Notes under the pieces: model-generated | Told to the model about the DNA's origin: nothing | What the model saw: only the letters and a program-made list of their open reading frames with translations | Database searches by the model: none | In this document: piece after piece, positions 220 through 26,945 of the stretch | How positions within the stretch are numbered: the stretch's first letter is position 1 | Layout of the letters: each line of letters starts with the position of its first letter | IMG/VR virus record: IMGVR_UViG_3300034101_000148 | Location: 1-29,340 of that record | Length of the DNA: 29,340 nt | DNA from: a virus | Lineage: Duplodnaviria > Caudoviricetes | Direction: 5' to 3' (one strand) | Translations under genes and position numbers: made by a program

Positions 220-3200
220 ATGAACGATAGATATCCTGCGGCGGGGCTAGCGTCCCTTGTAGCCGCTCAAGGCCGTGGCAAGGACACAACCCTTGTCCAC
301 ATGACCCCTGATGAAGTACGGACTCTTGAAGAGTTTGCCGCTGCTAACGGGCTACCAATTAAACGTAACCCTATTACCGGGCTTCCGGAGGCAGGGGCGC
401 TAGACAGTATTCTGAAGTTCTTCACTTCAGCCGGTAAAGTTCTTAGGAACGTTGGTACCGCAGCCCTTGCTAATCCTCAAACCACGGCTCTTCTAGCCGG
501 TACCGCCTACGGCGCTATCAAGGGCGACCTGCAAAAGGGCCTTGAGGCGGGCATGAAAGCCTACGCTGGGACTAAATTGCTTGGCGGTATCACGGCTGGA
601 ATGCAGCAAGGCAGGAAGATCCCCGGCATCGCCGGTCCTGTTGGCTATAAGGAAGCTGGTCGTGGTGCTGATGACTTTGGTGAAGTCGCGCCCGGTCTGA
701 TGGATGTCAAACCTACGGTTGAGGCTCCGCTTGGGAGAAGTCCTTCCACGGGCGGTCTTGATGCTCTTCTAGGTCGAGCACTGGGCGGCGGTCAGACCGG
801 TACTGCACAACAAGGACAGGCTCCGCAAGGACAACAAGGACTGTTCCGTTCGGGTGATCCAATTATGGATGCCATCATGCTCTATGCCACTAAGAAGGCT
901 GAGCAGAAGCTCACGGGGCAGCGTCCGGGCATCCCGACTCCGGAGCCGACGCAGTATCGCAACGTGCAGTTTAGCCGTGGGCAGGTTAACCCTCGCTTTG
1001 GTGAACCGGGGCAGCCGTATTTCATTGGTGGCGGGTATACAGATCAAGGTACGACAACACAGTACCCTGACTACACTCGGCCGCCGCCTGTTACTCCGCC
1101 CCAGACGCAGACTCAGATGCCGGGGCAACAGTATCAACAGCCTCCACCCACGGCTCCACCTAGGTCAGAGCCGCTAAGCGGTTTAGGTGACAGGAGATAC
1201 GCTATGGCTGGGGGCGGTATTGTCCCTCGGCCTAATGCTTCTTATCCGTTGAGTCGGGTGCAGCCTGCTGGTTACGAACCTGAAACTAATGTGTTTACGG
1301 GTGAAGAGGGTTTTGCTGAAGGCGGCATATCGGAAACGGCCAGCAATTTAGATTTGGAGTCTGAAGAAGAAAGGAGGCGGAAGTATTTCGAGAATCTCCG
1401 CCCTTTCGCTCCCGCCCTGTCTGATTACTATCGCACTGGTGCTATCAGCACCGGTTCAGAACAGGGCGACAATTTAAACCGCGATCCGCTTACTCGTCTG
1501 CCTCAAGTGCCACCGGGCGGCATAGCCAGCCCGGACCTTGCAGATTGGTATCGTTCACTTCTTGTACCCCCTACAGGCCGTGCTCCGGTCAATATGGGGG
1601 ATTACTTTTCTACTAGTCCAAGACGAGGCACTACTAATTACGGCCCAGTCGTAACTTATCCAGAAGTTACACCGCCTCCGCCACCCCCACCGCCTCCGCC
1701 GCCTAAGACTTGCGAGGAAGGCTTCGTATATATCGCCGCACGCGTCCTTGCAGGACTTGATCCGTGCGCTAAAGAGTGTTCGCCGGGCACTAAGCCCGAT
1801 GCGTTAGGGTTCTGCATACCTGACGTAAAGACCTGCCCAGATGGGTCGTTGCCCGATGCAGAGGGTAACTGTAATACGACCCGTAAATGTCCGGACGGCT
1901 CAGACCCTGATCCTGTCTACGGCTGCGATAAGCCCAAATTGTGTCCGGACGGGTCTATGCCGGATGCTAACGGCAACTGCCCCACGACCCGTAAATGTCC
2001 GGATGGCTCAGACCCTGATCCGATCTATGGCTGCGATAAGCCCAAATTGTGTCCGGACGGGTCTATGCCGGATGCTAACGGCAACTGTCCTTCAACCCGT
2101 AAATGTCCGGACGGCTCAGACCCTGATCCTGTCTACGGCTGCGATAAGCCCAAATTGTGTCCGGACGGATCTCTACCGGATGCCAACGGCAACTGTCCCA
2201 CGACCCGTAAATGTCCTGACGGCTCAGACCCTGATCCTGTCTACGGCTGCGATAAGCCCAAATTGTGTCCGGACGGATCTCTACCGGATGCCAACGGCAA
2301 CTGTCCCACGACCCGTAAATGTCCGGATGGCTCAGACCCTGATCCGATCTATGGCTGCGATAAGCCCAAATTGTGTCCGGACGGGTCTATGCCGGATGCC
2401 AACGGCAACTGTCCTTCAACCCGTAAATGTCCGGACGGCTCAGACCCTGATCCTGTCTACGGCTGCGATAAGCCCAAATTGTGTCCGGACGGATCTCTAC
2501 CGGATGCCAACGGCAACTGTAATACGACCCGTAAATGTCCGGATGGCTCCGACCCTGATCCTGTCTACGGCTGCGATAAGCCCAAATTGTGTCCGGACGG
2601 ATCTATGCCGGATGCTAACGGCAACTGCCCCACGACCCGTAAATGTCCGGATGGCTCAGACCCTGATCCGATCTATGGCTGCGATAAGCCCAAATTGTGT
2701 CCGGACGGGTCTATGCCGGATGCTAACGGCAACTGTCCTTCAACCCGTAAATGTCCGGACGGCTCAGACCCTGATCCTGTCTACGGCTGCGATAAGCCCC
2801 GACGATGTGCAGATGGCTCACTCCCGGATGCCAATGGATCATGTCCGGAAGATAGAAAGTGTCCGGATGGCTCAGACCCTGATCCGGTCTACGGCTGCGA
2901 TAAGCCCAAATTGTGTCCGGACGGATCTCTACCGGATGCCAACGGCAACTGTAATACGACCCGTAAATGTCCGGACGGCTCAGACCCTGATCCGGTCTAT
3001 GGCTGCGATAAGCCTAAAACGTGTCCGGATGGTTCAGTTCCTGACCCAATCTTCGGCTGTAATAAGGTTAGACCGTGCCCAGACGGATCTATGCCGGATG
3101 CCAACGGCAACTGTAATACGACTCGCAAATGCCCTGATGGATCTGAACCCCATCCAGTTTACGGTTGCGAAAACAAGGGGCCGTGCCCTGACGGTAGGCA

Positions 3201-4659
3201 GCCGGGCGAAAACGGCATTTGCTCAAACGGAGGCTGTCCGGACGGATCACCTGCCGTGGAGTACTACGGCTGCGATAAACCCGATGGTTCAGAAACTTGT
3301 CCGGGATACAGACAAGGCGAGATTAGAGACCCCATAACCGGCAAGTGTCGTCAGAAAGATATTCCGAAACGTTGTCCAGACGGCACTGATCCTCATCCTA
3401 TTTGGGGGTGCAATAATCCGTCGCTTTGTCCAAAAGGCACGACAGAAAACGTCTACTTAAAGGCGCTTGGTTTAGAGTGGCCGTTATATTGCGTGCCAAA
3501 TATTGTCAAACCGGATGTAACTTTCTATTACTGTGATGACGGCAGTAAGAGTACCGATCACAAAGATGACACTTGCCCGGAAGATATACCTGACCGACCG
3601 CGATGCAGTGACGGCTCCTTCCCAGAAGATTACCCAGATGGTAAATGTCCTCCGGGAGTAACAAAGTGTCCTGACGGATATCGTTATGACACGACTCTTG
3701 AAAATCTTCCGGGCGTAAACCCTTGCGTGCCAGATGACGGTTGCCCTGACGGACAACAACGCAGTCCTAATGACAACAAGTGCTATAAGCGCGGGGAAGG
3801 TCCAGAAGCAACGGATAGGTTTAAGCAGTGCGGAAGCGGTGCGATGGTCTACAAAGACGATCCATGCCCGGAAGATGTTGATCCTGAATATGCCGCACGC
3901 CTTGATTGTGATCGTAGTGGCGGTACTTACGACGGTTATTTACAAATATGTGTTCCGCCCGGAATGTGCTTAGGTAGTTTTGGAGAACTGTATCCAGAAG
4001 GTCCAAATGGTTGCGGATACTCTTACGATAACGACCCGTATGCGTACAGATGGGGGCAGTATGCTGCCGGTGGATCAGTAGAAAGTACTGCTGAATTTAG
4101 TTCTCCTTCTGACAGTATGATGGGTAAATTTAAGATGTTCGGTATCCCCGAAATGCCTAAAGGATTAGGCAGTGAAGACATCCGAATGATGGAAATTGAC
4201 CCCCGATACATGGCCTCTGGAGACACCGTGAAGAGAACTAAGAAGTATCAAACCGGCGGTATCGCCTCCTTGCCGACCCGTGATCCCCGTCTAGGCGGGG
4301 CTATGAACCCGGTTGATGGATACAACTTTGGGTTTGCTCAAGGTGGTATGCCGTCGATGCCTGAATATCAGGCAGGTGGTAAGCTCTTACGTGGACCGGG
4401 AGATGGTATGTCTGATGACATCCCTGCCGTAATCCGAGGTAAGGGGGTGCAGAGAGCGGCTTTGGCAGACGGTGAGTTTGTCATCCCCGCCGATGTGGTG
4501 TCGCATCTTGGCAACGGATCAACCGAGGCAGGTGCGAAAAAACTGTATAAAATGATGGAGCAGATTCGTCGTGCGCGAACGGGGACCGGCAAGCAAGCCC
4601 CCCAAGTAAACCCCGATAAGTTCCTGCCCCGTGCAACGCCCGCCAAGAAGCGGCGATAG
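220..4659 (+). CDS. Large putative virion-associated (internal/ejection cluster) protein with central Cys-rich tandem repeats, 1479 aa
   Basis: N-terminal GRGKDTTLVHMTPDEV..NPITGLPE module; Gly/Pro/Gln-rich linker; Pro11 run; 78 Cys between 1711 and 4014; several [FYM]xxGG motifs; C-terminal GPGDGMSDDIPA..LADGEFVIPADVV module. First of four large co-oriented, tightly packed late genes. Confidence 0.85.
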   Translation: MNDRYPAAGLASLVAAQGRGKDTTLVHMTPDEVRTLEEFAAANGLPIKRNPITGLPEAGALDSILKFFTSAGKVLRNVGTAALANPQTTALLAGTAYGAIKGDLQKGLEAGMKAYAGTKLLGGITAGMQQGRKIPGIAGPVGYKEAGRGADDFGEVAPGLMDVKPTVEAPLGRSPSTGGLDALLGRALGGGQTGTAQQGQAPQGQQGLFRSGDPIMDAIMLYATKKAEQKLTGQRPGIPTPEPTQYRNVQFSRGQVNPRFGEPGQPYFIGGGYTDQGTTTQYPDYTRPPPVTPPQTQTQMPGQQYQQPPPTAPPRSEPLSGLGDRRYAMAGGGIVPRPNASYPLSRVQPAGYEPETNVFTGEEGFAEGGISETASNLDLESEEERRRKYFENLRPFAPALSDYYRTGAISTGSEQGDNLNRDPLTRLPQVPPGGIASPDLADWYRSLLVPPTGRAPVNMGDYFSTSPRRGTTNYGPVVTYPEVTPPPPPPPPPPPKTCEEGFVYIAARVLAGLDPCAKECSPGTKPDALGFCIPDVKTCPDGSLPDAEGNCNTTRKCPDGSDPDPVYGCDKPKLCPDGSMPDANGNCPTTRKCPDGSDPDPIYGCDKPKLCPDGSMPDANGNCPSTRKCPDGSDPDPVYGCDKPKLCPDGSLPDANGNCPTTRKCPDGSDPDPVYGCDKPKLCPDGSLPDANGNCPTTRKCPDGSDPDPIYGCDKPKLCPDGSMPDANGNCPSTRKCPDGSDPDPVYGCDKPKLCPDGSLPDANGNCNTTRKCPDGSDPDPVYGCDKPKLCPDGSMPDANGNCPTTRKCPDGSDPDPIYGCDKPKLCPDGSMPDANGNCPSTRKCPDGSDPDPVYGCDKPRRCADGSLPDANGSCPEDRKCPDGSDPDPVYGCDKPKLCPDGSLPDANGNCNTTRKCPDGSDPDPVYGCDKPKTCPDGSVPDPIFGCNKVRPCPDGSMPDANGNCNTTRKCPDGSEPHPVYGCENKGPCPDGRQPGENGICSNGGCPDGSPAVEYYGCDKPDGSETCPGYRQGEIRDPITGKCRQKDIPKRCPDGTDPHPIWGCNNPSLCPKGTTENVYLKALGLEWPLYCVPNIVKPDVTFYYCDDGSKSTDHKDDTCPEDIPDRPRCSDGSFPEDYPDGKCPPGVTKCPDGYRYDTTLENLPGVNPCVPDDGCPDGQQRSPNDNKCYKRGEGPEATDRFKQCGSGAMVYKDDPCPEDVDPEYAARLDCDRSGGTYDGYLQICVPPGMCLGSFGELYPEGPNGCGYSYDNDPYAYRWGQYAAGGSVESTAEFSSPSDSMMGKFKMFGIPEMPKGLGSEDIRMMEIDPRYMASGDTVKRTKKYQTGGIASLPTRDPRLGGAMNPVDGYNFGFAQGGMPSMPEYQAGGKLLRGPGDGMSDDIPAVIRGKGVQRAALADGEFVIPADVVSHLGNGSTEAGAKKLYKMMEQIRRARTGTGKQAPQVNPDKFLPRATPAKKRR
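1672..1704 (+). repeat. Poly-proline tract (11 consecutive Pro codons) just before the Cys-rich region
   Basis: ccg cct ccg cca ccc cca ccg cct ccg ccg cct, in frame with ORF 220-4659. Mixed codons suggest selection at the protein level rather than slippage. Confidence 0.95.
1834..3183 (+). repeat. Coding tandem repeat: 25 x 54-bp monomers (18 aa, C-x11-C-x5), mostly alternating A/B 108-bp dimers, with 324-bp higher-order periodicity
   Basis: A = CPDGS[LM]PDANGNC[PN][TS]TRK, B = CPDGSDPDP[VI]YGCDKPKL. TGC at 1834 and TGC at 3184 are exactly 25 x 54 nt apart. Variant gatccgatctat at 2017/2341/2665 and ccttcaacc at 2089/2413/2737 (324-nt steps). Confidence 0.97.
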
Positions 4660-4670
4660 AGGGTACAAAG

Positions 4671-5765
4671 ATGTCTACTACGACTCCGACCACTACAACC
4701 CAGATTACGTCCAACATTCCAGAGTGGGCAAAAGCTTACGCCACTGACATACTGGGTTTTGGCGCGGCGCTCACGTACCCAAAGCAGAAGATTGATCCAA
4801 AAACAGGACAACCGCTTTATGCGACTAATCCAGTTACTGGACAACCGATTTTAAATCAAAAGGGGGAAAAAGTACCTCTTCTTGAGTCCGGGTTCCAGCC
4901 CTACGGCGGCGAACTAGTAGCCGGGGAAAGCCCTCTTCAGACGCGAGCATATAATGACCTGTCAAGTATGCAGGTCTCTCCGCAGACCTCTCAAGCAACT
5001 GGCTTCACGGGGCTGGCCGCGCTTCAAGCGCAGAATCTTGCTAGGTACAACCCGCTTGGTCAGCAAGAGTATTATCAATCGCCTTATATGCAGCGGGGCG
5101 GCTTAGATGCTTACATGTCTCCGTACATGCAGGGCGTGGTTGAACAGCAAAAGAAACAAGCAGTTCAAGATTACAGAAGGCAGATTCCGGGCATGGGTGC
5201 AGCCGCAGCCCGAGTGGGTGGTCGTGGTGGTACTCGTGAGGCGCTTCTTCAAGCGGAAGGGCAACGTAATCTAAACGAACAGTTGCAAAACATTCAGGCA
5301 ACTGGACTTCAGAATGCCTTTCAACAGGCATCACAACAAGCGATGCAGGATGCTGCAACTCGCGCTCAGTATGGTCTTGCCGGTACGCAGTTGGGTGAGC
5401 AGTCCCGTCAGTTTGGTGCGGGTCTTGGTCTACAAGGTCTTCAACAACAGTTGGCCGCTGCCGGTCAGCTTGGTTCGTTGGGTCAACAGCAGTATCAGCA
5501 GCAAGCCGGTATTCTCGGTGCCCAGATGGGTGCTGGTGCCCAGCAGCAAGCACTGAAGCAAAAGATGTTGGAGTCGAACTACCAACGCTTCATTGATGAG
5601 ATGACGTACCCGTACAAGCAGTTGGAGTTCATGTCGAACTTGCTGCGCGGCACTCCGTCGTCTGCTGAGACTCGTAACATTTATACGCAGGGTCCGAGTA
5701 CCTTCCAGCAAATAGCAGGTTTGACTGGCGGTGTTGGCGGATTGTTTGGATCTTTCGGGAGTTAA
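4671..5765 (+). CDS. Putative DNA ejection/pilot (internal virion) protein, Gln/Gly-rich, 364 aa
   Basis: Thr-rich N-terminus followed by NIPEWAKAY; YMSPYMQGVVEQQ motif; long Gln-rich helical stretch; Gly-rich hydrophobic C-terminus (QQIAGLTGGVGGLFGSFG); no Cys; position typical of podovirus ejection genes. Confidence 0.7.
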   Translation: MSTTTPTTTTQITSNIPEWAKAYATDILGFGAALTYPKQKIDPKTGQPLYATNPVTGQPILNQKGEKVPLLESGFQPYGGELVAGESPLQTRAYNDLSSMQVSPQTSQATGFTGLAALQAQNLARYNPLGQQEYYQSPYMQRGGLDAYMSPYMQGVVEQQKKQAVQDYRRQIPGMGAAAARVGGRGGTREALLQAEGQRNLNEQLQNIQATGLQNAFQQASQQAMQDAATRAQYGLAGTQLGEQSRQFGAGLGLQGLQQQLAAAGQLGSLGQQQYQQQAGILGAQMGAGAQQQALKQKMLESNYQRFIDEMTYPYKQLEFMSNLLRGTPSSAETRNIYTQGPSTFQQIAGLTGGVGGLFGSFGS

Positions 5766-5768
5766 ACC

Positions 5769-7157
5769 ATGATTGGTCCGGTAAGCGAAACTGGTAAGAC
5801 GATGCTCTCCTCGCTCCAAGGAGCGATGGCTAAGGGTATGCCTGTGGATCAGGCTATCCAGTACGTAAAGAGTCAGGCTGCAACAGGCGTTGCTCCGCTT
5901 GTAGATTTGTACGCGCTGCTCAAACAGTTTGAGCGACTGAAGCAAACACCGGCTCAACCTCCGCAAGGCGGCAACTTAAAGCAACAACTTAACAATCTTG
6001 AGTCGTCTATTGTTGGCGGTCAGCAAGGTGTTGCTGGGCTTGGTGGTCCGACGAGTTACTACGAAGAAATGCAAAACCCGATGGATCGCGGTATTGCCTC
6101 ATTAGATTCAGGAGTAATGGATAATCCACAAGGCTTCAACATGGGCGGTATCGTGGCTTTTGCAGAGGGCGGTCAGCCTGAAGCGCCGAAGTCCATCACG
6201 CCCCAACTGTATACGCTGCCTAAGTCGTATGAAGAGTTAGCGCAACAAGCGATGCGTGAGCAGATGGCGCTTGAGACTCCGGAAGGACGCGCTGCGTTCT
6301 TGGCTAAACAAGACGCAGAACTTAAAGAAGCCGGGCTTGGTCCGTATGCTAAGTCTCTTGAAATGCGTGATGAATTGGCTAAAGAAGCTGAGCAACGAGC
6401 CGGGTTACTGCCCGGTGAAGAAGCTGCGCTCAACGAAGAATCGTTCTGGGCAGACGTAGCCGGTTCCGACGCAGGTGATCTCGTGTCTGCTATGGCTAAG
6501 AGTAAAGCCAAGGCGGTTGAGCGCAAACGCGCCAGCCGCGAGAAAGTTAATGCTGCTAAAGAAAAGGCAGCGGAAGAGAAAGTTCTGCGCCAAGAAGCTC
6601 GTGAGGCTCTCAAGCAAGGCGATATTAACGCTTATAAGACAAAGCTCGCGGCTGCTAACACACTGCGAGATACGAAAGTTTCTGAGTACGTTAAAGATGT
6701 TGAGGGTGACAAAGACCGAGAAGACGCAGCGGCAAGGGCACGTGAAGTGGCGCGGATTCAGAAAGATTCGCCGTTGGCTCGGGCGCAAGAAGCGTTGCGT
6801 ACTACTCCGATGTACTTGGAGAACGGTGAGCCGAACCCGACTTATGGTGAGATTCGCCGTCTCATAAGCGATATGAATGCAGGTCGTGGCGGTGCAGGGA
6901 ATCGGTCACAGATAAGTTACTATCAAAATATCTATAGAAACGCGACCACTGCGCTAAGAAAGGCTCAAGAGGCTGATGCTGTATCTGGTACGGCTGAGAC
7001 TAGAGCAGCACTTCAAGCAGCACGGGCTGCTGAAGCCAAAGCACGACGAGACTATGAAGCGGCTTCGTTGGGGCAGGACTTTGAAGCACCTACCGGAGGA
7101 GTATCAGATCCTACACAGATGTCGGATGAAGAATTGCTGGCCGCTCTGAATCAGTAA
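5769..7157 (+). CDS. Putative internal virion/ejection protein, Ala/Glu/Lys-rich coiled coil, 462 aa
   Basis: GIASL..FNMGGIVAFAEGG motif at 6135-6173 followed by a long helical A/E/K/R-rich region; no Cys; 3-nt and 5-nt gaps to its neighbours. Confidence 0.65.
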   Translation: MIGPVSETGKTMLSSLQGAMAKGMPVDQAIQYVKSQAATGVAPLVDLYALLKQFERLKQTPAQPPQGGNLKQQLNNLESSIVGGQQGVAGLGGPTSYYEEMQNPMDRGIASLDSGVMDNPQGFNMGGIVAFAEGGQPEAPKSITPQLYTLPKSYEELAQQAMREQMALETPEGRAAFLAKQDAELKEAGLGPYAKSLEMRDELAKEAEQRAGLLPGEEAALNEESFWADVAGSDAGDLVSAMAKSKAKAVERKRASREKVNAAKEKAAEEKVLRQEAREALKQGDINAYKTKLAAANTLRDTKVSEYVKDVEGDKDREDAAARAREVARIQKDSPLARAQEALRTTPMYLENGEPNPTYGEIRRLISDMNAGRGGAGNRSQISYYQNIYRNATTALRKAQEADAVSGTAETRAALQAARAAEAKARRDYEAASLGQDFEAPTGGVSDPTQMSDEELLAALNQ

Positions 7158-7162
7158 AGCAC

Positions 7163-10100
7163 ATGGCTAACCTGCAACTTTTGCTGGAAGCAGAGCGTCG
7201 TGGCATCCTGCCGCCTGATAAAGCCGCACTGTTACAAGAAGCGCGTAAGCGCGGTCTAGTCCCCGGTACTAAAGCCGCTCCGCCTCAACCCGAAACCACT
7301 TCCAACCCGTTCATGGGCGCATTGGGTCGTGGTGCAGAACTTCTTGGATCAGGTATTGAACTCGCGGCCCGCGCTGGTGAATCCATCGGTGACTTCATCG
7401 CTGAGAAGGCTCCTGTCCTTGATACCCGCGTTGTTGCAGACAAAGAGGGCGTACGTGTAGAGCGTCCATCTCTGGAAGAAGTTCGCAAAGAAAATCAGAT
7501 GCAGTACATGTTCGACTGGGCGAACAGTCTGCGCGAATGGGGTCGAGAGATTAATTATGAGCCGAGTACCAAACTCGGTGACTTGGCTGATAACCCATTG
7601 ACTGCTGTGCCGTTCATCGTTGAGCGCGTAATTACGTCTGCTCCGGACATGGCTGCGGCTGTGACTGTACCGCTTCCGTACATTGCCACACGGTCTAACG
7701 AGATCCTGAATGAACGTCTGGCTAATGACAACAAAACGCTAGATCAAGCAACCGTTGCTGACGTAGCTGCCGCTACTGGCGCGGCCATCGTTGAAGGAAG
7801 TCTTGAGCGATTTGCTACAGGACGCTTGCTGGAGAAGGGTGCGGAAGCCGCTACCCGTGCCGGTCGTATTGGTAAGGAAGCCGGGGTTCAGGCAGGTACT
7901 GAAGCCACCGAAGAAACTGCTGCTTATGCTGGTGCCACTGCGGGTACCGAGGCAGGGTTTGATCCCCGCACTGCGGGACTTACTGCGCTTGAAGCAGCCA
8001 TCGTTGGCGGCGGTCTCGGTGCCGGTGTGCAGGGTGTTCGTGAATTGGTTGGGCCGAGTGAAACTCCGCCTGAAGTACCGCCTGTTGCACCTGCCGCTAC
8101 AACTGTTACGCCCCCAACTGCGCCTACTCCTCCCCCGGCAGCGGCGGCTGTACCTGCGTCGAAGGATGAACTGCTTGATGCTCCGCCTAAAGTGGCAGCT
8201 GAAGACGCGCCTGAGAACGTTCGTTATGAAGTGACGACGCTGAACAACGAACAAATCAACGATGAAATCGACAAGTTAGAGGACACTCAAGAGCAGCTTG
8301 CAGAACTCCTCTTTAACCCGCAGCAAATTGAACTACAGGCTGCACTCGCTCGTATTCCGCTAGACGTATACCGCAACAACTTACAGAATGAATTTGATCG
8401 AACTACTACAAAGATTGACGTTTTTTACAAACATCTGAATGGCACGTTGCCGCCCGTTAAGCCTACGATTACGCAGGACCAAGTGACGGCAGCGGGGGTT
8501 TCACCTGACGTTGCCAAAGCTCTAAATGTACAGCCCACTGTCACTCCTACTACCCCTGTCCCGCCGGGTGTCTCTGATGCAGCCGCAACAACAGCACCGC
8601 CAATTACTCAGCCGCCTGTCGGTGGAACAGTTGGAAGAGGCGCTAATGTGCCTCCATCTGGACTTACTACCCAAAGACAAATTGCTCCGGAAACTCCCGT
8701 CGCAGGATTGGAACCTGCTGCACGAACTCCTAGTGATGTTGTTCCGGGAGAAAGACCAGTCGAGCCTGCACTAACCGTTGATGAGGTTGAGGCAGAAATT
8801 GCGGCTAGGAAAGCCAAACAACAAGAAGCTATAGATATTGCTAGGGGAAATGCGGCAAGTGCTTTTGCCGATCAAAATTCGTTTAGGGATTTAAATGATT
8901 CTATCGGTGCGTACTTAGATAATGTAAGAGACACACTTCAAGAGTACGGACTTAGTGAATACGAAAACGCTGCTTTTGATGCGTATAACAAGCGGGTTGA
9001 AGAGCTAACCACTGCATCAACAGGACTGCGAACATTTAAACAACGCACGGCAGAAGAATCTGTTGCCGATACAAACAGCGACGGTCGCCCGGTCTATCCG
9101 ACGCAGGAAGGTCTGTCTAATTTCAAGCGTTGGTTTGGACGCAGTAAGGTCAAAGATACTCAGGATCGTCCGATTGTTTACTACCACGGGTCTCCGTCAG
9201 GGGATATTCAGCAGTTCCGCCGTGGTAGAGCATCGGCTATTTTTGCATCACCTGATCCTGATTTTGCTAAAGGTTTTACTTATAGTTCAAAAGTTGAGAA
9301 CGCCGGGCCGGTTTACCCTGTCTACATCAAGGCAGACAACCCGTTTGACTATCAGAACCCGCAGCAAGTTGATGCACTTGTAGAGGCGTACGACAAACTA
9401 TCTCCGGCTGTTAAAGCGGTCATAATGAGTAATCAATTTACTCTCGACGCCACGGAAAACATGATAGCGAACTCGCTATCTACCCCTCAATTTAAGAAAT
9501 TAATTGAGGCAGGGCTTTGGTCGGTTATAGAAATAGGGCCGGTTCAACGTCTCATTAAAAATCTTGGACATGACGGTTTTTTTGTAAAAGAACTAGACAC
9601 CAAAAACCTTGCCGTATACGACCCGAACCAGATCAAGTCTGCGGTAGGTAACGTCGGTACGTTCGAGCCTAAGTCTCCTCGTATTCTGGAGCAGCGTCGT
9701 CCACGCACGGCTGAAGAGGCTGAGCGACGGGAGTTTGAAGACTTTTTTGCGGGTGAAGCGGAACTTATCTACAGCACTCGCTCGTATGAGGCTGAGCCTA
9801 AGCCTGATGGTCCGTTCACAGGTGCCAAGGGCAACGTAGTTGTATCTGAAAGCGTTGATCCGCGCTTTGAGAAGTTGCTGTCGGGCTTGATGAAAACGCT
9901 CGGCATGGGAGATGTACGGGTATTTTTGGCAACGAAGAAGGATATGTTGCCGCCCGGAGCGTCATATGCAGACGCGATGGACAAAGCCAAGACCCAGTAC
10001 GGGATGTCCGGTGACTATGCCATCAATAGTCTTTTGGCTGATCTGCGTCCCAAGGGCACGGTCGGTATCTCGGCACAGTGGGGCAAGACCAAAGACTTTA

Positions 10101-13100
10101 TTATTGTTTACGACTCTTCAAGGACGTTAGAGCAGAACATCGAAACGGTTGCTCACGAACTGGGTCACGTTGTACAGATCACTGCTTATGACAATGCATC
10201 AAGCGACGTTAAAGCAGCGATCCAAGAAGAGTACGAGAAGTGGCTTAAGGCTACTAAAGGCAAGACCGCACGTGACATGGTGCGGGCTACGCGCAATCGG
10301 GTGACGGCACAAGAAGCCATCATTTATCCGCCTGAGTACAAATTCTCGGGTGAGGATCTTGAGTACTGGACTTCGTTCAGCGAGTGGTTTGCTGACAACG
10401 TATCCAAGTGGGCTACGACTAATAAGAAGCCCATGACTGTCGTGCAGAAGTTCTTTGCCGACATCGCTCGTAAGATCCGTAAGATTGTCTCTGAGATAAC
10501 CGGAAACAAGTTCGTACCAAACAAAGCCGTGGCTGACTTCTTGGACAAGATGGGTCCGGAAGATATCTCTGCATGGCTCAAGTCCGACACGATGCCGGGG
10601 ATGCGTACCAACTACATGCTGAATGCGGTTGGTAACAGAGTTAAGAATCTGCCTAGCCTGACCCGCAACGTTTATGAAGCGGTACGCAACATCCTCGACT
10701 CGACCCGCATTACTGACAATATGCGCTCGGGTATCTATGCGTTCCTGTCCCTGCCTCAGCAGGTACAGTTATTTGCGAAGGAACTACCAAAGCTCCGTGA
10801 TCTGCTCAACGTAGTCAACGTACGGGCAAGTTCGCTCAAGGATCGCAAGGAAGTTTTGGATAGAAATGTTCGTAAGTGGAACGAGGCTATCAGCGGTAAG
10901 ACTCAGAAGATGCGGGATGACTTCTACCGTATCGCGCACGAATCCACGCGCTTGGTGGGTGCTGATGGCCGCATGGGTATCGACTTTAATGACCCGGCTG
11001 AGGCAAACAATCCGCTCACCAAGGAGTTTAACGCCCTGCCTGCTGACCTGAAGAAGGTCTACTTTGAGATGTTGCAGAGTTACAAGGACATGTCGGATGA
11101 GTACTTAAAGCTCATCTCAAAGAACCTGTCCAAGCGTGCGGCACGTAAACTTGAGCGGCAGATGGCGCAGAAGCGCCTGAAGGTCTACTTACCCTTGTTC
11201 CGTGAGGGTGACTACTGGCTGCGCTACCAAGACCAGAATAACGAAACCGTGGTTATGTCGTTCAAGTCTAACCGCGAACGTGAGATGGCTATCAAGGAAG
11301 CAGTTGCGGCGGGTATTCCTCGAACTGCTATGCAAGAGTTTGCTCGTGTTGAAGGTGCGTTTCAACAAGCCGGTGGTGGGCCTTTCTTCTTTGGTATTCT
11401 GGATGAGTTGGATAAGCGGGGCGCTCCGCAAGCGACTAAACGCGCCTTGTTTGAAATGTATTTGGATTTAATTCCTGCTCAGTCGGTGCGACAGCAGTAC
11501 CGTACCCGTGATGGGTACAAGGGTTATGAGTCTGATCTAATGAATGTTTACGCCACGGTTGCATCCCGTATGGCGAATCAACTTACCAATCTGGAATACA
11601 TACCTGAGATTGACAAGGTATACAGCGAGATTGAGCAGGAGGCTAAGACTGCCGCTGCCCAGTCCAAAAACCTTGCAATCAACAAGTTGATGCAGAACCT
11701 AGAGTTGCAGATGGATTACCTTCGTGATCCTGCCAACAGCCCTCTGGTCAACACGCTCTCCTCGTTTAGTTACTACTGGTACATCATTGGTAACGTCTCG
11801 ACGGCCTTGATCAACCTGACGCAGTTGCCGATGGTGGTCTACCCGATGCTTGCTGGTAAGTACGGCAACGTCGATGCCACGAAAGCAATGGCTGACGCCC
11901 AGAAACAATACATGAAGGGCGGTTGGGATAACGACAACATCCCCGGCGGGGCGAAGCGGTTCCCGTCTGACTTCTCGTTTGGTATCGGCCTACCGGCTAA
12001 TTCTCCGCTGAAGAAGTTGTACGACGCTGCTGTACGGCAGAGTGCGATCCGTCGCTCGACGGGGTATGACGTTATCGAAGGCAGGAAACAGAACTACGGG
12101 ATGGGGGATTACATCGGTCTGAAGGCTAAGACCGAGCAGATACTGGGTTGGGTATTCCAGAACTCTGAGCGTTACAACCGTGAAATCACGTTGATTGCGG
12201 CGTTCAACCTAGAGATGAAGAAGAATGGTGGCAAGGTAGACGAAGCTATCAACACCGCTATCGACTTCATTAATGATACTCACGGTACAACCCTGACCGA
12301 GACCTCGCCGCGAGTATTCCAGAGCGGGTTTGGTAAGGTGGCATTCACCTTCAAGAACTTCGCCCAGACGATGATTTATCTGCAAGCCAAGTTGTTGCGC
12401 GATGCAGTCAAGGGCGAGACTCGGGAAGTTCAGAAACTTGCTGCCAAGCAGTTCTTGGGTATCTCCGCGATGGCCTTCACGTTTGCGGGTATTCAGGGAA
12501 TGCCGTTCTTCGGGGCCGGGACCGTGATGGCCGACATACTGCATGACATTCTTGGCGACGAAGATGAGCCGTGGAGTGCAGCGGCGGCTGTACGGGGTTC
12601 GGTAAATACGATTGCCAATAAAGGACCGGTCAACGAACTCCTGATGACAGACGTTGCCTCCCGTACTGGCTTTGCCAACTTGCTGTGGAAGGATGACGAT
12701 AAGCGTATTGAGGAAGTAGGTCCGATTCTGTTTGCGATGGAGCAGATCTTTGGTCCGTCCTACGCTGCGGCTATGGGCATATTCAGAGGGTATAAGGATT
12801 ACAAGGAAGGTCATTACGACCGTGCGGTTGAGGCGGTAACGCCGTCGTTCATTCGGAACAACTTAAAAATGTACCGGTACTACACGGAAGGTGCGCTGAC
12901 TAGAGATAAGAAGGTTCTATACGATGACTTCAACAAGTATGAACTGTTTATGCAGTCTCTTGGCTTTACGCCTGTTGAAGTAGCGCGTCGTTCAGAAATC
13001 GCCGGGGACAAGGCGAAGAAGATTAATGATCTGGAGAACCGGAAGAAGGCTCTCCTCGATAGGATGTACTTGGCTCGTATTAGCGAAGACGATGAGGGCA

Positions 13101-13345
13101 AGAAGGAAGCCAAGGCTGCGATTGATAAGTTCAACGAAAACGAGACTGTCAAACAATACGGTATGCGTATCACGCCAGAAAGCATCATCAGTTCTTACAA
13201 TACGCGGCGTAGTCGCGGTGCTCAGTCCACGTTCGGTATCTACTCGCCGCCGAAGATGCGTCCTGCCTTGAGCAAGGAGTTTGAAGAACCGCCCCCGCCG
13301 ATACTGAAGCGAATATTTAGTAAAGAAGAAGAGAAGAAAGACTAG
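7163..13345 (+). CDS. Large polyvalent/internal virion protein with ART-PolyVal-like, zincin metallopeptidase-like and PLxRFG-like regions, 2060 aa
   Basis: FKRWFG.SKV.D...P..YHGS..VYPVYI...NP..GHDG..V.DPNQIKSA.GN.GTF (9122-~9670); AHELGH (10151-10168) with downstream EWFAD (10382); YLPLFREGDY (11186-11215); STALINLTQ helical C-terminal region; last gene of the late arm. Confidence 0.8.
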   Translation: MANLQLLLEAERRGILPPDKAALLQEARKRGLVPGTKAAPPQPETTSNPFMGALGRGAELLGSGIELAARAGESIGDFIAEKAPVLDTRVVADKEGVRVERPSLEEVRKENQMQYMFDWANSLREWGREINYEPSTKLGDLADNPLTAVPFIVERVITSAPDMAAAVTVPLPYIATRSNEILNERLANDNKTLDQATVADVAAATGAAIVEGSLERFATGRLLEKGAEAATRAGRIGKEAGVQAGTEATEETAAYAGATAGTEAGFDPRTAGLTALEAAIVGGGLGAGVQGVRELVGPSETPPEVPPVAPAATTVTPPTAPTPPPAAAAVPASKDELLDAPPKVAAEDAPENVRYEVTTLNNEQINDEIDKLEDTQEQLAELLFNPQQIELQAALARIPLDVYRNNLQNEFDRTTTKIDVFYKHLNGTLPPVKPTITQDQVTAAGVSPDVAKALNVQPTVTPTTPVPPGVSDAAATTAPPITQPPVGGTVGRGANVPPSGLTTQRQIAPETPVAGLEPAARTPSDVVPGERPVEPALTVDEVEAEIAARKAKQQEAIDIARGNAASAFADQNSFRDLNDSIGAYLDNVRDTLQEYGLSEYENAAFDAYNKRVEELTTASTGLRTFKQRTAEESVADTNSDGRPVYPTQEGLSNFKRWFGRSKVKDTQDRPIVYYHGSPSGDIQQFRRGRASAIFASPDPDFAKGFTYSSKVENAGPVYPVYIKADNPFDYQNPQQVDALVEAYDKLSPAVKAVIMSNQFTLDATENMIANSLSTPQFKKLIEAGLWSVIEIGPVQRLIKNLGHDGFFVKELDTKNLAVYDPNQIKSAVGNVGTFEPKSPRILEQRRPRTAEEAERREFEDFFAGEAELIYSTRSYEAEPKPDGPFTGAKGNVVVSESVDPRFEKLLSGLMKTLGMGDVRVFLATKKDMLPPGASYADAMDKAKTQYGMSGDYAINSLLADLRPKGTVGISAQWGKTKDFIIVYDSSRTLEQNIETVAHELGHVVQITAYDNASSDVKAAIQEEYEKWLKATKGKTARDMVRATRNRVTAQEAIIYPPEYKFSGEDLEYWTSFSEWFADNVSKWATTNKKPMTVVQKFFADIARKIRKIVSEITGNKFVPNKAVADFLDKMGPEDISAWLKSDTMPGMRTNYMLNAVGNRVKNLPSLTRNVYEAVRNILDSTRITDNMRSGIYAFLSLPQQVQLFAKELPKLRDLLNVVNVRASSLKDRKEVLDRNVRKWNEAISGKTQKMRDDFYRIAHESTRLVGADGRMGIDFNDPAEANNPLTKEFNALPADLKKVYFEMLQSYKDMSDEYLKLISKNLSKRAARKLERQMAQKRLKVYLPLFREGDYWLRYQDQNNETVVMSFKSNREREMAIKEAVAAGIPRTAMQEFARVEGAFQQAGGGPFFFGILDELDKRGAPQATKRALFEMYLDLIPAQSVRQQYRTRDGYKGYESDLMNVYATVASRMANQLTNLEYIPEIDKVYSEIEQEAKTAAAQSKNLAINKLMQNLELQMDYLRDPANSPLVNTLSSFSYYWYIIGNVSTALINLTQLPMVVYPMLAGKYGNVDATKAMADAQKQYMKGGWDNDNIPGGAKRFPSDFSFGIGLPANSPLKKLYDAAVRQSAIRRSTGYDVIEGRKQNYGMGDYIGLKAKTEQILGWVFQNSERYNREITLIAAFNLEMKKNGGKVDEAINTAIDFINDTHGTTLTETSPRVFQSGFGKVAFTFKNFAQTMIYLQAKLLRDAVKGETREVQKLAAKQFLGISAMAFTFAGIQGMPFFGAGTVMADILHDILGDEDEPWSAAAAVRGSVNTIANKGPVNELLMTDVASRTGFANLLWKDDDKRIEEVGPILFAMEQIFGPSYAAAMGIFRGYKDYKEGHYDRAVEAVTPSFIRNNLKMYRYYTEGALTRDKKVLYDDFNKYELFMQSLGFTPVEVARRSEIAGDKAKKINDLENRKKALLDRMYLARISEDDEGKKEAKAAIDKFNENETVKQYGMRITPESIISSYNTRRSRGAQSTFGIYSPPKMRPALSKEFEEPPPPILKRIFSKEEEKKD

Positions 13346-23950: not shown

Positions 23951-24161
23951 ACTGTCTAATTCCTCGGTGTACTGCTGTTGCCATGTGATGCTGCGGCAGA
24001 TTCCACAGCACCATCAAATCCTTGTAAGTCATACGTTCGTCGAGTTCTTTGGCTTTTCGTTTACGCTCTAACAAGAACAAGTACTGCTCATACGAAAGCA
24101 CCAAGTTGTATCTTGACTTTTGTGTATAGACTTTAGGCTCTTTCCTTTTTCTTCGTGTCAT
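23739..24161 (-). CDS. Hypothetical basic protein, possibly DNA-binding, 140 aa
   Basis: Fills the 23951-24161 gap; TYKDLMVLWNLPQHHMATAVHRG is weakly HTH-like; the last ~70 codons overlap the 80-aa gene in another frame. Confidence 0.6.
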   Translation of the reverse strand: MTRRKRKEPKVYTQKSRYNLVLSYEQYLFLLERKRKAKELDERMTYKDLMVLWNLPQHHMATAVHRGIRQYDERIKAEGKDINNRRPIPARRVERRDESCPLGLWSKSAEARRAILREYTESGTVRRGYSPLIRVEYFED

Positions 24162-24167
24162 CCCTAA

Positions 24168-24881
24168 TTACCATTTCTGAAGACCATTTCTAAACTTGTT
24201 AGAGCGATGAGTAATGTACTTACTCATCTTGGCGTACTCTTCGTCACTTACTAAATGGTTTTTAAACTCCACTTTTCTCTCTGTCAGTGGAATCAAATAG
24301 ACCATTGGAGTACCGGCGTTCAGTGAATACGTAGCATTCTTTTTAGGGACAAACGCATTCACATTTGGATGTGCGGTGTCTTTAAAATTTATAAGCCCCA
24401 ATGGTATACGCAGGTCAGGATATTCAGAAATTAAATTCCAATCTGCTGATGCAAATAAAAACTTTATCCCGGCTTTGTCTGAAATAATCCACGGGCATTC
24501 CAATTTTAAATGGATGTGGTTTTCAAAACCTTTGCCAAACTGTTGTCGGTTGTGTGAATTCACCAACTCCAAACCAATTTTTTCTGTGGACTTCGCTGCA
24601 CAGTAACTCCATCTACCTTCTTCAGTAGTTTTAACTATTAAATCTACCCACAGAGGAATAGTCCAAGAACTAGAAAACAAATATACGAATCCACTACAGG
24701 TTTTCATTGTTGGAAAAGGTACGTCTATACCAAATTCGGTCGGTCTAGTAGCTACTATTTCAAGGTCTTTCCACCACTGCGGGGTATATGCAGAAGACCG
24801 TTTGATTGAACACTCTTCTAAGATTATTGCTTGATTAACAAAGCAATCAACGACCACTTTTCTTTGTTTGAAAATAAACAT
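24168..24881 (-). CDS. Conserved phage hypothetical protein (beta-rich, TMKxC / K..CPW / AGTP motifs), 237 aa
   Basis: P.WWK.L..TMKTC.GF..IPLW.D..HLKL.CPW..AGTPMV.LIP pattern, which I recall near 2OG-oxygenase genes in aquatic phages; GGAG upstream; AT-rich. Confidence 0.75.
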   Translation of the reverse strand: MFIFKQRKVVVDCFVNQAIILEECSIKRSSAYTPQWWKDLEIVATRPTEFGIDVPFPTMKTCSGFVYLFSSSWTIPLWVDLIVKTTEEGRWSYCAAKSTEKIGLELVNSHNRQQFGKGFENHIHLKLECPWIISDKAGIKFLFASADWNLISEYPDLRIPLGLINFKDTAHPNVNAFVPKKNATYSLNAGTPMVYLIPLTERKVEFKNHLVSDEEYAKMSKYITHRSNKFRNGLQKW

Positions 24882-24896
24882 TACTTTTATACTCCG

Positions 24897-25550
24897 TTAA
24901 AATTCTACCCACCCGGTCATAACGTACTTGCTATCTTTCAACGGAGGGTTACCACGATGGGTATGAGTGAATGCGGCTGGCCAAAGTAGAAGTCGCCCCG
25001 CTTTAGGCTGAACACGTTTACCTAGATAAAGAAATTCTGTTTCACCACCATCTGATATGTCATTTAAATACAGAATGAATACCAATAAACGATTCGCGCG
25101 TTCCCGTGTCATCGACTCGTAGTGCCACATATGATAGCCACCACCCGGCGGGGTTTTTTGAAGTTTAACCGAATAGATTTTGTGCGAAGCTGATGCTTGT
25201 AAGATTGAATACTTCTCAACATACAGTGGGTAACACGCTGACCAGAACACATCATTGAACCCGGCGCACTCAATTTTTAATTCATCGTTTGTATAAACAG
25301 AGCAGTTAGCAAAATCTATTGATTGATCTTTCATCACATGAGATGGGTGATCCATACCTTGTACACGAGAGTAGGCCATCCCTGCTGCATCTACTTTGTC
25401 AAAATGTTTAATCCAACTCTGGCAGTACTGCTCGGAAAACATCCCGTCAAATACACCTACAGCATTGTCGTCGATGCTGTAATCAAGTGTTGGAATCCTA
25501 TCCCGTATCTGCTGCTCAAGGGGTGACTTTATTTTCCGCACTCTTTCCAT
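24897..25550 (-). CDS. 2OG-Fe(II) oxygenase, prolyl 4-hydroxylase-like, 217 aa
   Basis: GGGYHMWHYE (HxE), R.LVFILYLND..GGETEF, P..G.LL.WP..THTHRG.PP..KY..TGW. Start moved to ATG 25550 (MERVRK), which has GAGGA upstream. Confidence 0.92.
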   Translation of the reverse strand: MERVRKIKSPLEQQIRDRIPTLDYSIDDNAVGVFDGMFSEQYCQSWIKHFDKVDAAGMAYSRVQGMDHPSHVMKDQSIDFANCSVYTNDELKIECAGFNDVFWSACYPLYVEKYSILQASASHKIYSVKLQKTPPGGGYHMWHYESMTRERANRLLVFILYLNDISDGGETEFLYLGKRVQPKAGRLLLWPAAFTHTHRGNPPLKDSKYVMTGWVEF

Positions 25551-25789
25551 GTTTCCTCGCGTACTAATACTAATAACTTGCTCATCACTTCGCTTTGCGA
25601 CTTGGGTTTGCCTTGTCGGTGGTTTTCGTCGAACTGATTCGCCATCGCTGTAATGATCTCCCAATCAATATGAGCAAGTTTTAAATCCTCCCCAATTTGC
25701 GCCCAGACTTTCTCTTGTGGCGGCATTTGTATTACGTGTTCGGGTTTAATGTCTAGGTAAGACACATCGTCATCATCGTTTGAAGTCAT
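25529..25789 (-). CDS. Hypothetical protein, 86 aa
   Basis: GGAG upstream; short overlaps with both neighbours in a packed operon. Confidence 0.7.
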   Translation of the reverse strand: MTSNDDDDVSYLDIKPEHVIQMPPQEKVWAQIGEDLKLAHIDWEIITAMANQFDENHRQGKPKSQSEVMSKLLVLVREETWKECGK

Positions 25790-26945
25790 CTCTGATCTCC
25801 TGAATAAGTTCTTGAATCTGATTAGTCCACGGGACTGTCATGCCCTCGCGGGGAAATAGTTTTACTGACGGATAAAACAGGCTACTGCGTCCGTTCTTGT
25901 GATTCCAATACCAAAGTTTGTTTGCGTCAAGTACATACGTCGGTCTTCCCAACGCACCTGCGATATGCACGTTCGCATTACTGACTGACACCACCGCGTT
26001 ACACAACGACATGATCGCAGCCGCACCTTCCAAGTCAAAGAAGTTACTGACGGTGGTCTGCCACACTTGCTTGCCTGTCTTCTCCTCAAACGGCTCGATG
26101 TCATGATCAGGTTTGCCGTACTGAAGATTGACTACTTTGACATTCGGGATATCCCACAACCCAAGCAATTCTTCCAACGCCACGCTCTTGTGCTTGTCGA
26201 TACGGGGCGCGGTGCTTGCCCACGATAGGCCAATGACGAATTCTTCTCCGGTCAGATTTAATTCTTGCTTGACCTGTTCAATACGCGCCGGGTCAGGTGC
26301 AATATATCTAGGGGCAGCAAATATCTGTATGTCTTCTTGTCGTTTAATAAAGTGTCTACCGATACTGGCAATCGCAATCTGCGAGTCGTAGTCAGAGTTA
26401 TTCACTTTGGAGTTGTGCGGGATGAAAGTAATGTGCTGATTCGGTCGTTGCAGCAATCCCATCATGCGAACATCAATCATGACCGTAACTTTCTCGGTCT
26501 GACTCTTCAGTGCGTCAATTAAACTTCCATACAGCAACTGATCACCAATGCCCTGCTCACACCATACAAGCACAGACTTGTAACCTTTTCCCGATTCCCA
26601 CGTAGGCAGTTTGGTTTTAAGTTTTGGGGAATTAAAAACGCTGCTATCCCACCGCCCATCGTACAACTCCCATCCGCGCTCAAAGTTGCCGGTCTGCAAC
26701 TCAATCAGACCCATCGTCCACTTGGCATCTGCGCTATCAGGATCAAGTTGTAAGGCTCGGCTAAAATCTTCTTTAGCCTTGTCCCAACGTTTCATCTCCC
26801 AATGCACCCGACCGCGCTGTACGTAAGACGCTACGACTAACGGATGCAGTTCGATGATCGTGTTCAGATTCGGTAGTGCGTCGTCAAACTTGTCGCCATC
26901 AATGTTAGCGAGTGCGTCCTTGAACATATCCTGTAATGATCTCAC
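25773..26945 (-). CDS. TPR-repeat protein fused to a GT-B glycosyltransferase (family 9/heptosyltransferase-like), 390 aa
   Basis: About three TPRs (SYVQRGRVHWEMKRWDKAKEDFSRALQLDPDSADA), G.FE.GW..Y..RW, VWCEQGIGDQL, IGLSW.S, VNLQYG, AA.M..C..VVSV.N..VH.AGALG.P..VL, W.W..S.FYPSV.LF. Confidence 0.88.
   Translation of the reverse strand: MRSLQDMFKDALANIDGDKFDDALPNLNTIIELHPLVVASYVQRGRVHWEMKRWDKAKEDFSRALQLDPDSADAKWTMGLIELQTGNFERGWELYDGRWDSSVFNSPKLKTKLPTWESGKGYKSVLVWCEQGIGDQLLYGSLIDALKSQTEKVTVMIDVRMMGLLQRPNQHITFIPHNSKVNNSDYDSQIAIASIGRHFIKRQEDIQIFAAPRYIAPDPARIEQVKQELNLTGEEFVIGLSWASTAPRIDKHKSVALEELLGLWDIPNVKVVNLQYGKPDHDIEPFEEKTGKQVWQTTVSNFFDLEGAAAIMSLCNAVVSVSNANVHIAGALGRPTYVLDANKLWYWNHKNGRSSLFYPSVKLFPREGMTVPWTNQIQELIQEIRDDFKR

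Follow-up and report, generated by a model that had tools for sequence, protein, structure and literature searches.

Short strings of the type [FYM]xxGG recur in the long open reading frame (ORF) at positions 220 to 4659 (gene 1) of virus record IMGVR_UViG_3300034101_000148, and the question raised by this locus is whether they mark joints at which the encoded protein is cut. The entire record, a linear virus contig of 29,340 nucleotides with an estimated completeness of 46%, was analyzed and is called the window here. An earlier sequence-only reading had regarded the product as a virion polyprotein in which a Cys-rich cargo lies between such motifs and a tape-measure-type module forms the cap. 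We read gene 1 as a modular polyprotein cleaved during maturation, its segments being joined by [F/Y/M]-[A/S]-x-G-G and cut before the Ala, and we give this reading slightly better than even chances. The protein would likely be the cargo that a short-tailed freshwater phage ejects first. Gene 1 is real DNA, because 20 of 23 listed sequencing runs, all of them lake metagenomes and none an RNA data set, contain half or more of its sequence words and contigs from four runs span its flanks.

The ORF and its six motifs (Table 1) were found in the places first given for them, as were the degenerate MASGD, the two strings of gene 3, and similar strings in two other genes (YMKGG in the gene for a 2060-residue protein and YTAGG in the DUF3310 gene); the overlapping YFIGG/FIGGG (1018-1021) and MQRGG in gene 2 were added to that list. 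The gene 1 protein contains eight [FYM]xxGG strings, with 1.9 expected, and six [FYM][AQ]xGG strings, with 0.17 expected; for either pattern, 0 of 5000 shuffles gave as high a count. Ala follows the aromatic residue or Met in four of the six motifs and Gln in two. Among the 24 genes of the window, [FYM]xxGG occurs 13 times in total, 11 times in ejection genes 1 to 3.

Counts for the gene 1 family refer to the best 80 loci and the window, which include 73 complete proteins. In these 81 loci, [FYM]AxGG was observed 181 times in gene 1, with 11.2 in shuffled sequences, although the query that retrieved these loci itself included one motif, a selection that does not apply to the other genes; the corresponding numbers are 42 and 11.6 for the gene 2 family, 25 and 1.6 as well as 13 and 1.0 for the gene 3 families, 3 and 8.2 for gene 4, and 3 and 3.0 for the upstream 700-residue structural gene. 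The virion-versus-nonvirion check proposed earlier was carried out with [FYM][ASNQK]xGG on four complete relatives, in classes set post hoc: 22 strings were found in ejection genes 1 to 3 (3.4 expected), 18 in 30 small post-capsid proteins (0.9 expected), 15 in other late genes (11.4 expected), 3 in 146 early ORFs (2.6 expected), and 1 in gene 4 (1.3 expected). The cultured relative Synechococcus phage MinM2 displays the same motif pattern, in genes 5, 6, 22, and 24. As anticipated, relatives share the motif and are enriched in it; it is not specific to gene 1 and forms a virion-wide code comprising ejection genes 1 to 3 and small basic proteins. Constraint acts on the protein, since synonymous codons replace one another at the motif: Gly is encoded by all four of its codons, Tyr by both, and Ala and Ser by many. 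No description of an x-A-x-G-G motif was found in the literature searched, which was mostly open access.

Three to five small basic proteins are encoded behind the capsid gene (L295:1948-3229 on the minus strand, L298:6364-8062, L304:6776-7788, L305:7830-8648, and MinM2 genes 5 and 6 at L081:2274-3462). In each, a variable N-terminal part is followed by the motif, behind which there is often a basic tail of conserved sequence (RADG.A.KG.T.G). In appearance they resemble proteins of the capsid interior that carry a tail for loading; searches returned no family name for them, and BLAST and phmmer gave no match between these free-standing proteins and motif-bounded cargo segments. The GEFV module of gene 1 was present in five of five genomes picked by a tagged small protein, a co-occurrence test of little power because most of the 80 loci are fragments and five genomes were searched.

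The expectation that the motif marks junctions was supported. Of 69 complete copies of gene 2, 26 are fusions with a long C-terminal part, and in 23 of these fusions a motif lies between -25 and +60 of the end of the gene 2 domain; the gene 2 core contains 2 motifs per 26,240 residues and the fusion junctions 46 per 5,850, the wider junction window taking in the leader motifs of gene 3 itself. Of the unfused gene 2 copies, 7 of 43 end with a motif and a short tail (strict pattern). The GEFV module forms the end of 357 distinct proteins, and 11 others continue beyond it; the motif follows the module immediately in 10 of these 11, the eleventh having FMEGG, and in 0 of 43 control windows. The N-terminal module begins at the start Met of 51 proteins; in 98 others it lies internally, always (98/98) with the motif directly before it. 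Upstream of the GEFV module, [YF]xxGG occurs within 14 residues in 81 of 81 homologues, Ala follows the aromatic residue in 47 of 48 gene 3 sites, and motifs occur as tandem pairs 8 to 11 residues apart. An SLT transglycosylase domain lies between motifs in gene 3 of L023. Finally, 9 of 149 gene 1 and gene 2 copies start with M-[AS]-x-G-G, compared with 1 of 373 ORFs in four genomes; such a start corresponds to the N-terminus expected from a cut before Ala or Ser. A DUF4214 domain is found both in a free gene starting with MAGGG directly after gene 1 (L063:10274-11026) and as a motif-joined extension of gene 1 elsewhere (P0031, P0023, P0086); the link between the extensions of P0031 and P0023 and the free gene is weak because it runs via this common domain.

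Complete gene 1 homologues span 293 to 1479 residues and consist, in order, of an optional 60-residue N-terminal module, a part rich in Gly and Ala, motifs, a slot that differs in length, further motifs, and the GEFV module. The slot exceeds 200 residues in 21 of 81 loci. Slot contents are mostly dissimilar; L001 and L004 share about 215 residues at 60% identity within otherwise unlike slots. Of the proposed conserved scaffold with exchangeable cargo, the hypervariable and partly exchanged middle was thus confirmed, whereas the N-terminal module proved optional. At E ≤ 0.001, the C-terminal module matched 12,553 cluster representatives, and the number of stored viral stretches with a pattern match is estimated at 2900; gene 1 belongs to a very common freshwater phage group.

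The tape-measure character ascribed to the GEFV module was borne out by profile comparison. In an alignment of 85 module sequences, one Gly, one Asp, and one Glu are invariant. The profile matched the tape measure protein (TMP) of Douge in two copies (E value of 4e-15) and that of JBD30 (E value of 3e-4), and 63 of the 85 members matched the TMP family phrog_3547. Lambda gpH gave no direct match to the profile (domain E value of 0.04); its FATGG-GEFV-YATGG segment and the TMP-type members of the alignment match phrog_24, phrog_3336, phrog_339, and phrog_36688 at the same profile positions. Judged by these matches, the C-terminal module of gene 1 is homologous to the TMP module, directly for Douge and JBD30 and via shared PHROGs for lambda. 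In Douge gp16 (PDB 8ZDO), JBD30 gp46 (PDB 8RK3), and lambda gpH (residues 733 to 782), the homologous module likewise follows [YF]AxGG; it comprises about 45 residues there, located between two motifs about 100 residues from the C-terminus, whereas the gene 1 module has extra helices and forms the C-terminal end.

The JBD30 "hook" (residues 1022 to 1066) is predicted to form two helices and a short hairpin; its authors found no peptidase motif and speculate about a cut at R1066 (PMC11445458). In three papers on TMP structures, the module lies outside the modelled residues. A first AlphaFold2 model of the gene 1 module, computed from 24 close sequences, was unusable, with a predicted local distance difference test (pLDDT) value of 53; the later model features a hairpin and helices at a pLDDT of 68, with residues 1 to 33 below 50. 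Foldseek found nothing for it in the PDB at E ≤ 0.001, which does not make the fold new; a wide search with VIA peaked at a Z score of 2.4, and BFVD returned uncharacterized phage relatives only. A complex prediction combining the module with the double motif of gene 3 scored 0.00 and counts neither way. The notion that the N-terminal and C-terminal modules are copies of one domain was dropped, the HHalign comparison not being significant.

The register of the putative cut is taken from phage T5, whose TMP pb2 is cut after R1127, as mapped by mass spectrometry (MS), giving pb2* and pb2C (PMC10038345). In T5 record NC_005859, AEGG comes directly after R1127, and the part behind the cut comprises 92 residues, in agreement with the length of the C-terminal piece in PMC12617516. 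This R/AEGG site is kept in 28 of 28 T5-like loci, and pb2 contains only two x-A-x-G-G strings in 1219 residues, a count noted after the fact. T5 pb2 and the gene 1 protein resemble each other in having x/A-x-G-G at a joint, followed by a short GE-containing module, and both would leave the virion before the DNA; they differ in that a single cut has been mapped in the long-tail ruler of T5, compared with six predicted sites in the podovirus-type cargo of gene 1 and additional ones in other genes. TMP cleavage has been demonstrated for T5 and lambda only, according to PMC12617516 (2025), where the pieces of lambda gpH are reported as about 78 and 14 kDa and the site and catalyst as unknown. A cut at F733/ATGG of gpH (L085:543-3104) would yield 79.8 and 12.5 kDa, so that by calculation from the sequence F733/A734 fits the published fragment sizes.

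The second comparison is with cargo protein C1 (gp45, PF25725) of crAss001, whose portal-bound piece is modelled from residue 425 (PMC10172136); this residue is the Ala of N/AFGG. Among 28 C1 homologues, 98 motifs were counted, with 12.6 expected. C1 shares with gene 1 the position as first gene after a large tail-tip gene, a Gly-rich N-terminal part, many x-A-x-G-G strings, a GE-V-containing domain right behind a motif, and a basic C-terminus behind a motif; in C1 the module is not C-terminal and a Cys array is lacking, and the available text of PMC10172136 reports no C1 cleavage. The crAss001 gene itself (L086:11988-14516) contains six or more such strings, and the inserts between them vary among the 28 homologues. 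None of the four C1 peptides from MS named in the available text spans a motif. Gene 1 shows the motif-punctuated architecture and gene position of PF25725-type proteins; it gave no match to PF25725 at E ≤ 10, HHalign of the module with C1 returned a probability of 0.1%, and the Atlas lead scored 0.84. Gene 1 is outside both the TMP and the PF25725 families. Our best reading is that its mode of action would come closest to the T5 pb2 maturation cut, transferred to a cargo resembling crAss C1. The sequence-only view of the motifs as maturation cleavage signals thus gained the T5 string, with the likely register moved: a cut after GG was rejected because the T5 cut precedes Ala and the AFGG residues belong to the resolved C1 piece.

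According to this scheme, the precursor would enter the prohead by means of its GEFV module and basic tail, by analogy with the docking of crAss001 C1 on its portal, and a protease reading chiefly the A-x-G-G side would then cut it. The predicted products are an N-terminal ejection piece of 34 kDa, a Pro/Cys passenger of 97 kDa, small spacers, and the module of 10 kDa. The same enzyme would trim both the leader of gene 3 and the small basic proteins of the head and would separate the parts of natural gene 2/3 fusions, and the pieces would exit ahead of the DNA. The prohead proteases T4 gp21, phiKZ gp175, and SPN3US gp245 likewise act on one short motif repeated over many head-internal and ejected proteins, cutting after Glu; in contrast to those systems, no such protease was recognized among the 30 late proteins of two relatives. 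Polyvalent proteins with an MPTase domain, which are domain strings delivered with the DNA and for which proteolytic splitting has been proposed (PMC5512222), offer a further likeness, gene 4 being such a protein; gene 1 differs in lacking HExxH and LPD domains, and gene 4 is not enriched in the motif. The available texts of PMC13033339, PMC1796659, PMC11447400, PMC5512222, and PMC11053796 give no cut sites at x-A-x-G-G-like strings, and our searches found neither a solved capsid or portal structure of relatives nor, in the literature, a virion proteome of cultured relatives.

Candidates for the protease would be the GEFV module itself, the HExxH domain (metallopeptidase) of gene 4, or a host enzyme. 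That the module is a tiny self-assembling protease common to TMPs and podovirus ejection proteins seems to us quite unlikely. It would employ the invariant Asp and Glu, brought close to each other by a hairpin, to cut x/A-x-G-G, in cis in lambda gpH, JBD30, and Douge and in trans in genes 2 and 3 and the small head proteins. The invariant residues of the 85 sequences, the motif always ahead of the module, and the presence of the module in all five tagged-protein genomes speak for it; its lack of a match to a known protease family, its small size of about 45 residues in TMPs, and the failure to detect homology to the T5 module count against it. A conserved, unassigned gene of 149 residues, phrog_36003 (L295:10473-10922 on the minus strand, and homologues), is a further candidate; in MinM2, in GB2A, and in every complete relative examined, it is located between a scaffold-like gene and the capsid genes.

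Several points weigh against cleavage. The virion location of the gene 1 protein is deduced from gene order alone, and cleavage of gene 1 or its close relatives is a prediction from sequence and analogy. The prohead protease implied by the sequence-only reading was not recognized when the 30 late proteins of the complete relatives G001 and G002 were compared with PHROGs, several conserved genes being without assignment; the protease-named PHROG matches among these proteins cover only the capsid part of fused families. HExxH of gene 4 is present in 23 of 31 complete copies. Besides the two Gln-containing motifs of gene 1, the residue after the presumed cut at the module-proximal site is Ser in 57%, Ala in 33%, and Leu and Gln in 4% each. 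The link to T5 comes down to a four-letter string because its downstream module has no detectable homology to the GEFV profile and no PHROG in common with it; at the second pb2 string, R138-A-L-G-G, no cut is reported in the available text of PMC10038345. The crAss001 authors take the two C1 pieces as one continuous chain (PMC10172136), the second of which begins 7 residues beyond a motif Ala and not at the Ala. The classes of the four-genome enrichment were set after inspection of the data, with ORF calls that include spurious ones, and the gene 1 loci were found by a motif-containing query; the 98 internal N-terminal modules represent few independent events, since nearly all belong to one clade and come from one search.

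Some of this evidence bears on the main alternative, in which the motif would not be cut and would serve for docking or as a hinge: a short strand would bind the GEFV module, the portal, or the inside of the capsid and in this way load the attached segment, the protein remaining intact until ejection. Such a role agrees with the small basic proteins, in which the motif stands 20 to 40 residues from the C-terminus ahead of the conserved basic tail, with the AFGG residues of C1, which are ordered in portal-bound density and modelled as part of one chain (PMC10172136), with the tandem pairs, with the tolerance of Gln and Leu after the aromatic residue, and with the failure to recognize a protease. 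However, the mapped T5 cut falls exactly ahead of such a string, one of the two in pb2 (a post hoc observation), and the motif vanishes where a segment begins at Met or ends at a stop, whereas a loading handle would be expected in free-standing proteins; gene 2 of the window and most unfused gene 2 copies lack a terminal motif. We consider docking without a cut rather unlikely. It is improbable that the strings are plain flexible Gly linkers or remnants of past fusions without a specific partner, the Cys array being a neutral repeat expansion: the proteins are indeed Gly-rich and of low complexity, and the array, which 77 of the first 80 relatives lack, differs in copy number from one near-identical phage to another, yet Tyr or Phe precedes GG by three residues at every module-proximal site, Ala is nearly constant in gene 3 while synonymous codons vary, and Gly-preserving shuffles give about 1/16 of the observed count.

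The annotation of the Caulobacter phage homologue GB2A gp65 as a TMP, together with the phrog_3547 matches and the GEFV-type module after [YF]AxGG, would make gene 1 the TMP of a long-tailed phage. The match covers just about 50 to 85 residues; instead of a long helical body of conserved length, the remainder is Pro/Gly/Cys-rich in proteins of widely differing length, as judged by composition and length, no coiled-coil predictor having been run. Nor does gene 1 stand between tail tube or chaperone and distal tail genes, as a TMP gene does: a DNA ejection protein (phrog_4287) is encoded next, followed by the polyvalent protein, and no tail-tube or chaperone family was found among 30 late proteins of relatives. 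We consider this identity very improbable. Scarcely credible is a DNA-level recombination or insertion site swapping cassettes; it would account for the exchange between the otherwise unlike cargoes of L001 and L004, and is largely refuted by the codon spread at the motif. Cleavage before the Ala thus remains our preferred reading.

The placement of the Cys cargo between motifs was right in that no motif lies inside the Cys block (residues 498 to 1265) and motifs flank it; the motif-bounded segment (residues 366 to 1281, 97 kDa) is larger than the block because about 130 conserved residues separate FAEGG from the first Cys. The 36-residue unit of the tandem array consists of two 18-residue CPDG units. 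The near-identical relative L309 lacks 216 residues, i.e., 6 units, and contigs from four runs do not resolve the copy number, so that the latter may reflect natural variation or assembly. About 20 Cys residues in a gene 1 homologue were seen in only 3 of 80 relatives, and a search with the repeat yielded nine loci, eight of which are gene 1 in the close clade. In most relatives the Cys block is missing and the slot is short or Pro/Gly-rich. Most likely, the array is a clade-specific, length-variable passenger; very tentatively, it might form disulfide-bonded hairpins in the host envelope. Peritrophin-A was considered as the identity of the repeat and discarded, the Atlas lead of 0.77 being below the usable score. 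A Cys unit almost identical to the repeat occurs near the C-terminus of a long tape-measure-like protein (L317:2-5605).

With the whole gene 1 protein, Pfam and PHROGs searches returned no family, so that no LPD or ART domain was recognized, its sequence contains no HExxH, and PDB searches with single sequences gave no match. The region between the N-terminal module and the first motif is probably a membrane-contacting ejection part; a 19-residue hydropathy window of at least 1.2 occurs within the first 330 residues in 62 of 73 homologues, but not in the protein of this phage.

Table 1. Coordinates of gene 1, its parts, and the adjoining genes in the window. A slash in a motif marks the presumed cut, in the register of T5 pb2.
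Feature	Position	Strand	Remarks
Gene 1 of the putative ejection block	220..4659	+	1479 residues; likely virion-internal cargo polyprotein; 80 homologous loci
Optional N-terminal module GRGxDxxLVHM...NPxTGLxEA	220..399	+	Present in 40/73 complete homologues
Gly/Ala-rich, then Pro/Gln/Tyr-rich region	400..1203	+	From composition
Motif M/AGGG, residue 329	1204..1218	+	Predicted cut after 1206
Motif F/AEGG, residue 365	1312..1326	+	N-side border of cargo slot
About 130 residues kept in closest clade, poly-Pro at end	1327..1710	+	Inside motif-bounded segment; matches in 3/80 relatives
Cys/Pro/Asp-rich block	1711..4014	+	Contains all 78 Cys
Tandem array	1867..3029	+	108-bp (36-residue, four-Cys) unit; 10.8 copies; copy number variable
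Motif Y/AAGG, residue 1281	4060..4074	+	C-side border of cargo slot
Degenerate motif MASGD, residue 1331	4210..4224	+	MASGG in close relative L311
Motif Y/QTGG	4246..4260	+	Gln in place of usual Ala/Ser
Motif F/AQGG	4333..4347	+	From sequence
Motif Y/QAGG	4366..4380	+	Immediately precedes GEFV module
GEFV module, about 85 residues	4381..4632	+	Common to tape measure proteins
Gene 2, DNA ejection protein	4671..5765	+	phrog_4287, E value of 1e-11
Gene 3, likely ejection protein	5769..7157	+	Leader of about 120 residues, double motif at its end
Double motif F/NMGG-IVA-F/AEGG in gene 3	6135..6173	+	FNMGG at 6135, FAEGG at 6159
Gene 4, polyvalent protein	7163..13345	+	ART-PolyVal, LPD39, DarB-like, HExxH; motif not enriched

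The plus strand of the window carries the end of a structural gene followed by the four genes of Table 1, and the minus strand carries replication genes; we infer from this layout the ejection block of a short-tailed phage. The upstream 700-residue structural gene corresponds to phrog_3287, with a presumed nozzle role, and no portal gene lies within the window. Genes 1 and 2 are separated by 11 bp (4660-4670) that contain no gene; elsewhere this gap measures at least 300 bp in 55 of 75 loci and often holds a GNAT gene (PF00583 in L057), examples of occupants being L057:10261-10713 and L070:10261-10674. In L003 to L007, gene 2 reaches 500 to 1005 residues by an internal expansion that contains no motif, which is a second way for the length to change. 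The gene 4 product combines ADP-ribosyltransferase, HExxH, and LPD39 domains; its slot is also swapped, since the MinM2 and GB2A equivalents carry different annotations (RelA/SpoT and lytic, respectively). On the minus strand, positions 24168 to 26945 have a lower GC content (39 to 44% over 24001-26000) and were likely acquired recently; by eye, the ORFs there resemble a 2OG-Fe oxygenase and a TPR-containing protein.

If the GEFV module were the protease, both the enzyme and the site that are missing for lambda gpH would be provided, and one of the most abundant aquatic phage groups would possess a polyprotein system into which any cargo could be plugged, to be loaded and released. If the proposed rule holds, the site in lambda gpH would be named, F733/A734 and perhaps Y778/A779 too, and it would suggest that the two separated crAss001 C1 pieces arise by cleavage and do not form a single chain running over 420 Å. 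It would also show how common lake phages, with more than 12,000 protein clusters containing the module, add and swap injected cargo, including wall-cutting enzymes.

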